From Candidatus Heimdallarchaeota archaeon (lineage in GTDB: Archaea > Asgardarchaeota > Heimdallarchaeia > JABLTI01): 53,240 nt of DNA. The position numbers were made by a program, and so were the translations under genes. Location: NCBI GenBank assembly GCA_019058275.1, contig JAHLVW010000118.1, forward strand, positions 1-53,240. The letters run 5' to 3'. Numbering within the stretch: position 1 is the stretch's first letter; each line of letters starts with the position of its first letter. The notes below the pieces were generated by a model. That model saw only the letters and a program-made list of their open reading frames with translations. It was not told the origin of the DNA and did no database searches. This document shows positions 25,827-30,143 of this stretch, piece by piece.

Positions 25827-26966
25827 TTATAGCTCTAGATTATTTCTATTGTCTTCGACATGAATGATTTTAAGCGATATTGCATCATCATCATCAACGG
25901 TTATTGGAATTCGTTCTTCTTTCTGCTTCAAAATTTCTGGTTCATAAGCAAGTTCGCTAATAATGATAGAACGAGTAATATTTCTATTATCACTTATACA
26001 GCGAACTTTATTTCGCTCAGGTAAGTTGATGTATTTGGAATTACAATAATTGCAAGTTATTTTTCTCGATGGGAAAAAAGGTTCTTCAGATGATCGAAAA
26101 GCTTTGATCTCTTGAGAACAAAAAAGGCAACTATGCCTGAATTCATCTTGGATCACTCCTTGTTTATTTGATAGAACCTTTATGCTCTCTCTTGTGAAAG
26201 AGCCAAAATCAGAATAATCTAAAGTAAAGTCTTTGCTTTCAGTAGCTTCTTGATATCCACCACAAGCTCTAGTAGTTTTAGCCAAAGGATTAGTCGCTCT
26301 CTTGAGTTGCTCAAGAGTAAGAGAGCTGTAAGCTTTCTCAAACAATATGCGATTTGTTTTACACTGCCTTGTTTTATGATCGTACGAAACACAAGTAGCA
26401 CAAGTTTTAGTAAGATGAAGTGTTGCTTTGATGTTTTCCACGGTACCATAGATCACCTCGTCTCGGTGAACACCTTTTGTTGTTAATTTTACAACAGCAC
26501 CCATTCGTACTAGTTTTTCCAGGATTTTTCTTACATGGTAAGCTCCGATGCCTTTTCCTGCTGCTAGTTCCCTGACAATGATGTTCTCATTGGAGATAAT
26601 GTCTAGAAGATACTTTTCAAGAAATTCCTCTGAATAAATTTTGGTTGTTTTACCTCTTCCAACAAACACATCGTCTACTTCTAATTCTCCCTCCTCTTTG
26701 TCCTCCTCGTTCTGCTTGTATGGTTCTTTGTTTGGGAAGGTGTTTTGGTGTTTTTTCTGACTTTTTAGTGTCTTTTTTTGTGCGGCAAGGTTTTTCTTTG
26801 CATCCTCTGCTAATAGTCCAAAGTCCTCATCCAAACCTTCGAAAATATCATGAGTAGACCGAAAGGAATAGCTATTGTTTTGAGCTTTTCTAGCTTCAAG
26901 ATTACTTGAATGGTCATCTAGATAAAAGACATCCCAAATAACATCTAGGCTGGTAAAGTCATTCAT
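25827..26966 (-). CDS. wHTH plus two Cys4 Zn-binding clusters; probably C-terminally truncated and fused
   Basis: VRELAAGKGIGAYHVRKILEKLVRMGAV wHTH; CATC...C...C and CLFC...CNYC. Confidence 0.65.
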   Translation of the reverse strand: MNDFTSLDVIWDVFYLDDHSSNLEARKAQNNSYSFRSTHDIFEGLDEDFGLLAEDAKKNLAAQKKTLKSQKKHQNTFPNKEPYKQNEEDKEEGELEVDDVFVGRGKTTKIYSEEFLEKYLLDIISNENIIVRELAAGKGIGAYHVRKILEKLVRMGAVVKLTTKGVHRDEVIYGTVENIKATLHLTKTCATCVSYDHKTRQCKTNRILFEKAYSSLTLEQLKRATNPLAKTTRACGGYQEATESKDFTLDYSDFGSFTRESIKVLSNKQGVIQDEFRHSCLFCSQEIKAFRSSEEPFFPSRKITCNYCNSKYINLPERNKVRCISDNRNITRSIIISELAYEPEILKQKEERIPITVDDDDAISLKIIHVEDNRNNLEL

Positions 26967-26974
26967 TAGATCCT

Positions 26975-28114
26975 CTAAATCTTTGGCAGAGAGCTGCCCT
27001 TTCTCAAGCTTTTTTGATAGTGCATGGAGAATATAAATAATGAAACCGATAGACCATCACTGAAACAAAAACGATGGAAAAATTGTCGTCCTTTATCAGT
27101 CATTTTGTAACAATAATTTTCCTTAAGCTCAAGTAATTTCACTCGACAGGTAGTTGTTAAGTATCGCAAAATTAACCTTAATTGGTCTATACTATAAGCA
27201 ATTTTTTCCTCAAGATTTTCAGGAAATGCTTGTTCGAACGTAAGCCAAAGTTTGTAGCAAATACTGTTTTTGATTACTGCTTTAAGCTCCTTGAGGTTTT
27301 TTCGAGCGCTGAGAGTAGCTGTAAGAATGAGCTTGAGAAGACATGATACTCCTGGTGTACTAGGATAGGCATTCTTTTTTAATGCTGCTGAAACAAGATT
27401 CCGGTCCTCAAATAGGTCCAATCGAAAATCTTTCAAAAGATCTCGTCGAGTATATTCTTCTCTTTTATAGGTTATTGCTGTACCTGCAAACAACCATTCC
27501 AGATCTTCTTTTCGAAAACTTAATTCCTCTCCATGGATGAAGGTGTAAACAGCCTTTTTAGGAAGTAGATTAAGGATTTGGTCTAGAAAAATGCTCTCTG
27601 AATAGTAGTCTGATCTCGATAAAGGGGTAAGAAAAACAAGTCCTGAGACATTTATTCGTTTGTTCTTGGATAACTCTTGTGAAAGTACTTGTATTAGCTT
27701 GTGATATGAGCAAATGATAAAATCAGGGGTACCATATTGAGTATAATTTCCTTTTCTCCTTATTTGTGAGAACAGATTTGCTATTCGAGCATTAGTAAAT
27801 TGCTTATCTAGTACTGAAAGGACTTCTCGTGCTTTGTATTCGGATTTGGCTACTAACACCACAGGAGCTGTGCTCTTCTTTCGCAATCCTAGAGCTCGAA
27901 GAACCATAATATCAACTGCGCGTTCATTGCTTGAACATCTTATTGAACACAGAGCGGGATCTTCTATTATTGTTCGGATCTCTTTTTTCGAGTAATCAGA
28001 AGTGAGTGTGTTAAAGATTTGAAACGATTCACCATCATCAGAAATAGATAATTCTGTAAAATGCTCAAATAATAATTCCGGTAAAGTGAGAGAGCTTTTT
28101 TGTGACGTGACCAT
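26975..28114 (-). CDS. degenerate Ski2/Hel308-like helicase derivative (first RecA-like domain plus winged helix, catalytic motifs lost)
   Basis: Ia-like VLVAKSEYKARE and Ib-like DFIICSYHKL, with no GKT or DExH; WH-like LILTATL...IKNSICY...YKMTDKG. Confidence 0.55.
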   Translation of the reverse strand: MVTSQKSSLTLPELLFEHFTELSISDDGESFQIFNTLTSDYSKKEIRTIIEDPALCSIRCSSNERAVDIMVLRALGLRKKSTAPVVLVAKSEYKAREVLSVLDKQFTNARIANLFSQIRRKGNYTQYGTPDFIICSYHKLIQVLSQELSKNKRINVSGLVFLTPLSRSDYYSESIFLDQILNLLPKKAVYTFIHGEELSFRKEDLEWLFAGTAITYKREEYTRRDLLKDFRLDLFEDRNLVSAALKKNAYPSTPGVSCLLKLILTATLSARKNLKELKAVIKNSICYKLWLTFEQAFPENLEEKIAYSIDQLRLILRYLTTTCRVKLLELKENYCYKMTDKGRQFFHRFCFSDGLSVSLFIFSMHYQKSLRKGSSLPKI

Positions 28115-28199
28115 TTACTTGTTTCCCATCCTGTTTGTTAATCAAAAATCTTTTTTCCTTTGGTTGTGGAATCATCTTCTATCTTGTTAGTTGAAGCGA

Positions 28200-29204
28200 T
28201 TACCTCTTCAGTAACAACCCTTCTTTACCAAGGTGAAAAATGGTTTCTCCAGCAGGAAGATAAGAGCTATCCAAGACTTTGATCTTCTTTCTTTGTCCAT
28301 CCAAGGACACAATTAGAAAGCGATTCTCAGTAGTATGAGCAAAAGCGAACCCGCCTAGAGGAAAGTACTTTTGTTTGGTTTCTTTCTCAGCATCAGTTAG
28401 GTCTCCTCTCACTTGATTAGTGATGATTACAGCACAATTAAATTCTCGGCTAACATTCTTCAAGAAACCAAGAATCTCACGTAATGCTTGAGCTCGAGCA
28501 GGATAATCCTTCTGGTAATGCCTATTAAAAGGTGCAATGAGTGAATCAATGATGATCAAACGAAGATTACACTCACTCTGACAGAACTCCAGCATCTTTA
28601 GGAATGCTTGAAGTAGCTCCAGAAAAGTGTGAACCTTGGCATATTTAAAGAGGTGCTTAGCATTTTGCTGTTGGTTCTTGACAACATTGCTTATTTTCTT
28701 TGGCAAGAGAGAATGCTCAGTGTCAATCCAGAGGACAGAATTGCCTGGTAAAGAGTCGTTTATTTGACTGAAACAAGATAAAACACTTGCATAACAGAGC
28801 TGTGTCTTCCCTGAAGCAGCAGGTCCAGCAAACTCAAAAAGATGCCCAGTTTCAATACCTCCTTGTAATAATAGGTCTACATTCTTGGTGCCTGTGGAAA
28901 AAAACGTAGGGGGTTCGGGTTCTAATTCTTCTAGTGATTTCATAACTACAGGAGAAAATTGAAGGTATATCTCACCTAGAAACCCTAAATGCTCTTCTTT
29001 TAAATCAAGGAATTTAACAAGCTGTGAACCAAAAAGGCACTTTAGTGCTCTGGTATCTTTAAGCCAGGAGAAACTCAGAAGATGATCTTGTACCTCCTCG
29101 GGAATTTTATATCCGTGTTGTTCTGCCCAGAGCAAAAAATCTTTGATAGGTAAATAATTATTTTCTTCTTGGTTTGATAGTTTATGTGCTTGAGTCATGA
29201 TCAC
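28200..29204 (-). CDS. RadA/Rad51 paralog
   Basis: STG..NVDLLLQGGIETG, Walker A GPAASGKTQ, WIDTE, Walker B IIIDS, ITNQV and PLGG. Confidence 0.92.
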   Translation of the reverse strand: MIMTQAHKLSNQEENNYLPIKDFLLWAEQHGYKIPEEVQDHLLSFSWLKDTRALKCLFGSQLVKFLDLKEEHLGFLGEIYLQFSPVVMKSLEELEPEPPTFFSTGTKNVDLLLQGGIETGHLFEFAGPAASGKTQLCYASVLSCFSQINDSLPGNSVLWIDTEHSLLPKKISNVVKNQQQNAKHLFKYAKVHTFLELLQAFLKMLEFCQSECNLRLIIIDSLIAPFNRHYQKDYPARAQALREILGFLKNVSREFNCAVIITNQVRGDLTDAEKETKQKYFPLGGFAFAHTTENRFLIVSLDGQRKKIKVLDSSYLPAGETIFHLGKEGLLLKR

Positions 29205-30143
29205 CTACTCAATGATTGCCTTGTTTTCTACTCTTTCGAATTCGTGTAACGAAACCACTTCTCTTCGCCACCTCTCAAGAATGCATTGTAAAGTTAATAT
29301 GTTCAATAACACTGGTTGTTTTTTTGATTTCACAAACATTTCAAGTATCGATTGTAATTGTCTTACAAAATAATTCGTATATTCATTGGTAATTCTTGCT
29401 TGTTTTTCTCCTTGGAGAAGATAGCTCGTACCAGAATATGTTTTAGAATAAGCAATTTCAGTTATTTTGCTAATTATTACACCTGAATTTTTTGCTGGTG
29501 GTAGAGTAAACAGTTCATGCTGTTCTCTCATAAAGGTCATAATTTTTTCTACTAATATTTTTGCTTGTTTGCACGAACTGCTAATAGCTTTTGCTAGGTG
29601 GTCGTTATCTTTTGGTAACAATTTTAGCTTAAGATATTCTTCATTTTGTTTGTATTGTGCTGCTTTTGGGTGTTGTTCTCCATTCTCGAACAGTGTCAAT
29701 TTGTCTGCAGAAAGATATTTGCCATCCCATTGTAATGTTTGGATGAAGAGTAACGAGTGCTGCTCTTTCAGAAGATAACGTTCTGTGAATTCTTGTGCCG
29801 AACAATAATGTGCTGCTTCTTCGAAAAGGCAAAGGCTAAGTGTTTTTCCATGAATGTCTTGCAGTTGCAGTTTCAAGTAGCGTTTGCTGTTCCTTGCAAC
29901 AGCTTCTTCTATTGATTCAACTACTCCTAAGAAATCAAATCGCAATCCTTTACTTATTACTGATTGTTTCTTGTGTTCATGTAATGTGTCAAAAGTTATT
30001 AAAAACCCTAGATATTCTTCACACAAACTAAACGATTCATCTGCTACATCATGAAACTCTAACTTGGATTCCAAGTTAGATGCTTTTATTAAGAGCGATT
30101 CGAATTCTGTTTCTTGCTTGTCTTCGGTCATTACTTTTGTCAT
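29205..30143 (-). CDS. OB-fold (RPA-like) nucleic-acid-binding protein
   Basis: FDFLGVVESI...YLKLQLQDIHGKTLSLCLFEEAA is a typical OB-fold beta1-beta3 pattern. Confidence 0.55.
   Translation of the reverse strand: MTKVMTEDKQETEFESLLIKASNLESKLEFHDVADESFSLCEEYLGFLITFDTLHEHKKQSVISKGLRFDFLGVVESIEEAVARNSKRYLKLQLQDIHGKTLSLCLFEEAAHYCSAQEFTERYLLKEQHSLLFIQTLQWDGKYLSADKLTLFENGEQHPKAAQYKQNEEYLKLKLLPKDNDHLAKAISSSCKQAKILVEKIMTFMREQHELFTLPPAKNSGVIISKITEIAYSKTYSGTSYLLQGEKQARITNEYTNYFVRQLQSILEMFVKSKKQPVLLNILTLQCILERWRREVVSLHEFERVENKAIIE

Follow-up and report, generated by a model that had tools for sequence, protein, structure and literature searches.

A 53,240-nucleotide (nt) contig from a Candidatus Heimdallarchaeota archaeon (JAHLVW010000118.1 in assembly GCA_019058275.1; hereafter the window) carries four minus-strand open reading frames (ORF1 to ORF4, at 29205–30143, 28200–29204, 26975–28114 and 25827–26966, with gaps of 0, 85 and 8 nt) behind a gene for an IS607-type serine transposase, tnpA. 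What kind of genetic unit do these reading frames form? A preliminary description made from the sequence alone read them as a mobile operon of four linked genes, encoding an OB-fold protein, a paralog of the recombinase RadA, a dead Hel308-like helicase and a winged-helix/zinc-finger protein that had lost its C terminus. We find that the locus is almost certainly the left 5.0 kb of an element of ~13.6 kb, which inserted at GGG^T inside a 139-codon host gene and was later cut by a microhomology deletion and two frameshifts, and that this copy can no longer move and has no Cas1 domain. This type of element had already been predicted; what is new is that the present clade carries its own RadA recombinase together with a partner, probably binding single-stranded DNA (ssDNA), that is predicted to dock on RadA.

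One split gene in a truncated element

ORF3 and ORF4 together align end to end with residues 1 to ~740 of a single ORF of 1353–1372 amino acids (aa) present in seven other copies of the element, which rules out four independent genes. The reading frames and gaps stand as first described, but the gene count does not: there are three genes, ORF3 and ORF4 being parts of one, aCas1. A 1-nt deletion between 27036 and 27035 divides it, the start of ORF4 at 26966 is an internal Met of aCas1, and the last ~18 codons of ORF4 are the tail of an unrelated host gene. Loss of a further nucleotide at 28219/28218 takes ~21 aa off the RadA paralog and creates the 85-nt gap, which measures 23 nt in intact copies. 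The closest copy is 84% identical to the window in DNA from 30934 to 25884. Assembly GCA_019058195.1 carries the same lesions, and thus the breaks are not a quirk of the window assembly and are unlikely to be assembly artefacts.

The boundaries of the insertion are visible in the host gene that it interrupts. An 87-aa ORF at 30898–31161 contains the first 78 codons of this gene, which is intact in seven of 11 relatives. In the sister genome G004 the site is empty; its sequence agrees with the window as far as 30929, where it reads GGGT, and the agreement resumes at 25891. Relative to a full copy, an in-place deletion at 25884 cost the element ~8.6 kb: the Cas1 domain, the genes for a YprA-like helicase, a phosphoesterase, a LAGLIDADG protein and TnpB, and the right end. 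A further 122 bp, from the host gene, went with it and are absent from the assembly. Truncation by a second insertion or by the end of a contig is ruled out, since the same host gene lies on both flanks.

The intact element

In full, the gene order is left end, tnpA, OB gene, RadA paralog, aCas1, YprA-like helicase, phosphoesterase, reversed LAGLIDADG gene, tnpB and right end. The seven other copies (L056, L057, L059, L062, L063, L168 and L169) each carry an OB gene, a RadA paralog (353–354 aa; frameshifted in L169), the long ORF, a helicase with DEAD, Helicase_C and MZB domains, and a metallophosphoesterase; homologs bear the label Candidatus Heimdallarchaeota. The LAGLIDADG gene and tnpB follow wherever the contig extends far enough, placing tnpB in the same repeat-flanked locus as aCas1 in intact copies. 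Beyond the putative zinc fingers, where the preliminary description had suspected a lost catalytic domain, these loci encode Cas1, and then the active helicase, phosphoesterase, LAGLIDADG protein and TnpB that it had missed. The full gene lists of five complete copies contain no PolB. All element genes have evolved under purifying selection, with ratios of nonsynonymous to synonymous substitution (dN/dS) of about 0.1–0.3.

Conservation of gene order elsewhere, on which the preliminary description had staked its reading beforehand, is found for the OB gene and the RadA paralog, which keep their order in all eight copies of this clade. These copies are related by descent and count as one acquisition. 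Mobility of the cassette is likewise borne out, and a search of the same genome recovered further cassette copies on contigs C11, C17, C27 and C8, plus many distant relatives.

The copies also differ in instructive ways. In genome G000, on contigs C5, C27, C45, C52, C53, C73, C78 and C117, there are at least eight right ends; aCas1/LAGLIDADG/TnpB loci number more than 10 there and come in two or more gene orders. A lone frameshifted remnant of the first ~150 aCas1 codons, with no element genes nearby, lies at L008:8661-9102 (G000 C8). Two copies share an extra cargo gene at different sites, a 976-aa Eco57I-like restriction-modification gene (L168:13197-16127 and L169:17176-20106). When positions 25884–30934 of the window are compared with L057, synonymous divergence climbs from 0.09 in tnpA through 0.21 in the OB gene and 0.38 in the RadA paralog to 0.8 in aCas1, a gradient that points to recombination between element copies.

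Predicted folds of aCas1

The preliminary description wondered whether an integrase, Cas1 or nuclease had been lost from the C terminus of its fourth protein; structural comparison of intact copies identifies it as Cas1. A model of residues 1–1200 of an intact copy was built from a 23-row alignment and reached a predicted local distance difference test score (pLDDT) of 67, compared with only 35 for a single-sequence fold. It matches casposase in Foldseek (expect value (E) 2.4e-6) and Cas1 in VIA (Z 19.5; root-mean-square deviation (rmsd) 4.8 over 293 residues; range 775–1131), and Atlas gives a TM of 0.60 by target. Three residues of catalytic type, E908, H990 and D1006, are invariant across 23 aCas1 sequences. 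Judged from this model, intact copies carry a large divergent Cas1 homolog with the E/H/D residues, and the window copy has lost this domain.

The front of the protein has a different character. Residues 125–414 match POLQ, Slh1, Lhr, Hel308/Hjm and Brr2 with tied scores (VIA Z 8.5–9.6; rmsd 4–7 over 196–244 residues), residues 487–560 model as a winged helix (wHTH; VIA Z 8–10), and for the N-terminal front Atlas gives only a feature score of 0.81. Walker A and DExH are absent from the N terminus in all aligned copies. These matches moderately support a Ski2/Hel308-like RecA1 domain plus winged helix, not specifically Hel308. The proposed dead Hel308-like helicase thus keeps a plausible fold and lacks its motifs, as was claimed, but it is the N terminus of aCas1 and not a separate protein, and its kinship is not with Hel308 in particular. 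Because of this, the four-protein analogies drawn earlier to HELQ with RAD51 paralogs and RPA, and to imuABC, do not hold. A hidden Markov model of the aCas1 N terminus finds no host helicase below E 0.01 in its own genome. The cysteine-rich region, which was modelled only within the longer chain, has no structural match listed. Pfam and PDB sequence profiles detect neither Cas1 nor the helicase in these proteins.

A RadA paralog and its probable OB-fold partner

The RadA paralog retains Walker A and B and is distinct from the housekeeping radA at 43657, as the preliminary description stated. It also keeps the catalytic Glu, L1/L2 and ATP-cap residues, whereas the RK motif is missing. The phylogeny proposed earlier places it in a long-branch clade of its own (3.4 changes per site), apart from three host paralogs; with an open root, its donor cannot be named. 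Intact versions (for example, L057:6400-7461) end in a tail with a basic stretch followed by FD in six copies and LD in L169, which is lost in the window and may be a binding motif. The housekeeping RadA (window 43657–44895) has a charged low-complexity N-terminal extension of ~95 aa, and three host RadA paralogs occur in the genus.

In 11 of 11 family genomes, the OB gene has a host paralog of ~250 aa that is present in one copy beside the thermosome gene; the protein family is not found beyond this group. At L025:1492-2238 (G000 C89) and L012-L021, this probable OB host protein, which has no Pfam family, is in every case encoded divergently from the thermosome gene. The versions in the element have, in addition, a conserved N-terminal arm of ~35 aa that has no counterpart in the host paralog. 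A profile–profile comparison matches the protein to Asgard PF01336 at E 0.002 (score 21.7 against 12.6 for the best of 30 shuffles; probability only 12.6%), the match to the YhaM OB fold is weak (E 0.69), Atlas gives 0.86, and a profile comparison with one RPA-like protein yields no match. An OB fold is likely, and the protein is a putative ssDNA-binding protein. Both genes of the pair show dN/dS of about 0.1–0.25.

A physical OB–RadA module, as the preliminary description envisaged, is supported by complex prediction. The intact pair scores 0.69 and the best control 0.00, on a test whose mark is reached by 58 of 80 solved complexes and two of 110 mismatched pairs. At least 53% of contacts are shared between runs, and partner pLDDT is at least 74. 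Contacts are confined to arm residues 3–32, which are conserved in element copies only, and RadA residues 43–65, 166–201 and 231–241. Thus, the OB N-terminal arm is predicted to bind the RadA paralog. By our alignment, residues 166–201 correspond to the Rad51 surface used by the polymerisation motif and by BRC repeats.

Element ends and empty sites

Left ends read GGGT, then 4–5 bases, then a motif that leads into two copies of GGACA. The repeat is found inverted at right ends, whose final bases are CGG with a T after them. The result is a subterminal imperfect inverted repeat whose halves lie at different distances from their respective ends, accompanied by short direct motifs. Three empty sites read GGGT and reveal no duplication beyond the shared GT core (a 2-bp GT duplication is formally possible). 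A hypervariable spacer or 4–5-bp duplication at the left end was considered and dropped, since these bases mismatch the empty sites and are common to related ends. The ends match the rules described for IS607 elements (PMC6188088), and an IS607 element with target TGGG, right end TCGG and TnpB-promoted retention has been reported (10.1101/2023.11.20.567912). A serine TnpA with an N-terminal helix-turn-helix at the left end, paired with tnpB at the right end, occurs in this clade only. The tnpA gene, with dN/dS of 0.10–0.29, is unbroken only in the window among the eight copies, and the other copies have lost it or are differently damaged.

Other insertions of related elements add to this picture. 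A 352-bp mini-element at window 50577–50928 (minus strand) is composed of a left end, the tnpB 3′ tail (probably the omega-RNA region) and a right end. Its insertion site is GAG^T, in the broken frame of a PD-(D/E)xK-like nuclease, and the frame is restored once the element is removed. Among the insertions with a left end in L001/L073 and a right end in L075/C53, one lies in a tRNA-Leu-like sequence, and two copies in GCA_050009915 appear to have swapped left and right flanks, which suggests rearrangement between elements.

How the element might move

We propose, with confidence in the whole that falls a little short of even, that the element derives from IS607 and moves by TnpA-driven cut-and-paste at a GG/GT core, in cis or in trans. 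TnpB would cut GGG sites that are vacated or empty, the resulting break would be processed by the element's helicase and phosphoesterase, and the OB–RadA pair, as a loader and recombinase of the element's own, would copy this very large element back in at the cut. As the mobiliser, TnpA is put slightly ahead of aCas1 on genomic evidence that points both ways, and aCas1 is given no role in the scheme. A broader formulation seems to us rather doubtful: that the element carries its own homologous-recombination kit, made of a neofunctionalised RadA and a host-derived OB protein with a mediator-like arm, which would complete either TnpB-triggered homing or aCas1 integration of the 13-kb cargo.

Several observations weigh against TnpA-driven movement with copying by OB–RadA. 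No serine recombinase (PF00239) is found in 11 relatives (64–90% complete), though seven of them carry aCas1 elements, and the same ends bound several elements that lack tnpA. Within the clade, tnpA is broken or missing in seven of eight copies, yet aCas1, though much longer, remains whole in seven of eight; on one reading this would be survivorship, with copies persisting after loss of tnpA or, in the window, of the right end. The Cas1 domain, to which our scheme assigns no job, is under the strongest selection (dN/dS 0.07–0.09). The pair itself appears to be accessory: it is dispensable, because OB and RadA are missing from every other aCas1 element in the screen, several of which are truncated by contig ends. 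Neither Pfam nor PDB profiles confirm the OB fold. In all six aligned RadA paralogs, the canonical FxxA is replaced by [MIL][KR]SL, and with the arm predicted on or near what we map as the polymerisation surface, the paralog may not form filaments. Moreover, by the same mapping some arm contacts fall on the surface used by BRC repeats; the complex score may thus stem from similarity to solved RadA/Rad51-peptide structures and is no demonstration of binding.

Much of this evidence is also the case for aCas1 as the transposase, acting on captured IS607-derived ends, with OB and RadA preparing or capturing target or donor DNA and tnpA a fading relic. Such a role for aCas1 has been proposed (Altae-Tran 2023, PMC10691335), and it comes closest to the preliminary description. 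aCas1 is present in every full element and has the lowest dN/dS and invariant catalytic residues, OB–RadA–aCas1 form one tight operon, and, in genomes where no serine recombinase is detected, elements without tnpA but with the same ends occupy several sites. However, casposase generates ~15-bp target duplications at terminal repeats (PMC9939771), whereas only the GT core is shared at the three empty sites; purifying selection acted on tnpA during the divergence of the clade; and the sole recent move seen (C27 versus G004, 96.7% identical) is explicable by TnpA in trans. We consider aCas1-driven transposition unlikely on balance, though a serious contender.

The missing FxxA and RK motifs and the long branch of the RadA paralog, with an arm predicted near what we map as the polymerisation surface, could instead mean that OB–RadA is a regulator or decoy, whose arm caps the paralog or host RadA and which senses ssDNA or damps host recombination in the manner of ImuA or aRadC without catalysing strand exchange. 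Retention of Walker A/B, the catalytic Glu, L1/L2 and the ATP cap speaks against this, as does the lack of an encoded partner polymerase or protease, and we regard it as improbable. Less probable still is that the operon is a repair or defence module of benefit to the host, riding on an IS607 element, with dead-tnpA copies maintained by host selection. Most copies do combine intact cargo with a dead tnpA, two have gained a methyltransferase, and YprA/DUF1998-type helicases occur in defence systems; yet, among the loci examined, the operon is not seen outside these elements, and this genome tolerates several broken copies.

Features of the locus

Table 1. Coordinates of the truncated element and of the host gene that it interrupts, in the window
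Feature	Position	Strand	Evidence
Host gene 5′ part, 78 of 139 codons, family unknown, cut by the element after GGGT	30929..31161	-	Intact in 7/11 family genomes; G004 empty site 96% identical up to 30929
Element left end, subterminal repeat (two GGACA motifs), inverted at right end of intact copies	30894..30928	-	Onset of identity to other copies; end motif scan
IS607-family serine transposase TnpA, 189 aa	30250..30819	-	PF00239, E 3e-20; dN/dS; lesions elsewhere independent
Probable OB-fold plus helical-domain protein, likely start 30131 (308 aa), element-specific N-terminal arm	29205..30143	-	Host paralog comparison; weak OB profile match, E 0.002; complex prediction
Fast-evolving RadA/Rad51 paralog, Walker A/B kept, C-terminal ~21 aa lost	28200..29204	-	PF08423, E 1e-34; tree and alignment; DNA alignment
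aCas1 residues 1–~359, probable degenerate Ski2-like RecA1 plus winged helix; ORF continues out of frame to 26975	27036..28114	-	Alignment; VIA Z 8.5–9.6
aCas1 residues ~360–740 after the frameshift: helical region, wHTH, cysteine-rich (putative Zn) region	25884..27035	-	Alignment; wHTH Z 8–10
Deletion junction, 8-nt microhomology (7/8 versus G004 host sequence)	25884..25891	-	Element identity stops at 25884, host identity starts at 25891
Host gene 3′ remnant, in-frame fusion to the aCas1 stump	25827..25883	-	94% identical to G004 empty site

Implications and comparison with known systems

The empty site of the window establishes an IS607-like insertion chemistry, a result relevant to the published idea of aCas1 as a transposase, and the window holds the only unbroken tnpA found, a reagent for testing TnpA against aCas1. 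The clade-specific OB–RadA pair offers a small testable case of a transposon that brings its own recombinase and partner, relevant to TnpB-based large insertions and to the origin of Rad51 mediators. If the broader formulation above is true, an OB-plus-arm recombinase loader analogous to BRCA2 would exist in the archaeal group nearest eukaryotes.

The nearest relatives are the Asgard aCas1–TnpB loci (Cas1H-Asgard-1 and -2) of PMC10691335, which also describes Ser-3 TnpB loci with helicase and WhiA-like cargo. Both they and the element described here are repeat-flanked Asgard elements with a giant divergent Cas1, TnpB, a helicase and a LAGLIDADG/WhiA-like gene, and both have a conserved T after the right end. 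The window clade differs in having tnpA and aCas1 together, plus OB and RadA, and only a relic is left in the window. RadA goes unmentioned in the main text of PMC10691335, whose GTTCACTCA motif is not found at these element ends; Makarova 2020 (PMC7307682) may have mentioned RadA or OB earlier.

With the IS607 family (IS607, IS1535, ISC1926 and CboIStron), the element shares a serine TnpA on the left and TnpB on the right, a GGG target, a CGG right end, a subterminal imperfect inverted repeat, short direct motifs and the absence of target duplication. In contrast, it measures ~13.6 kb, carries six cargo genes and has a conserved T past the core, and a working tnpA is absent from most copies and all sister clades. 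Like casposons, it encodes a CRISPR-less Cas1 of casposase fold, and one element copy lies in a tRNA gene; unlike them, it has no PolB and no ~15-bp target duplication, its Cas1 is fused within a 1350-aa protein and TnpB is present. Hel308/HELQ and imuABC resemble it in that a probable remnant of a Ski2-like fold and a RecA-family gene share one operon, but here the helicase-like remnant is a domain of aCas1, and no Y-family or DnaE2 polymerase is encoded.

The mediators of RadA and Rad51 (BRCA2 with its BRC repeats and OB folds, Rad51 paralogs, and RadB/aRadC) offer the closest parallel to the pair, in which a short arm on an OB-type protein is likewise predicted to dock on the ATPase core of a RadA-family protein. 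The arm is without demonstrated BRC-repeat homology, and its LxKAS motif does not lie at the FxxA pairing place in the model. What sets the pair apart from these mediators is that the predicted docking partner is a dedicated paralog carried by the element itself.

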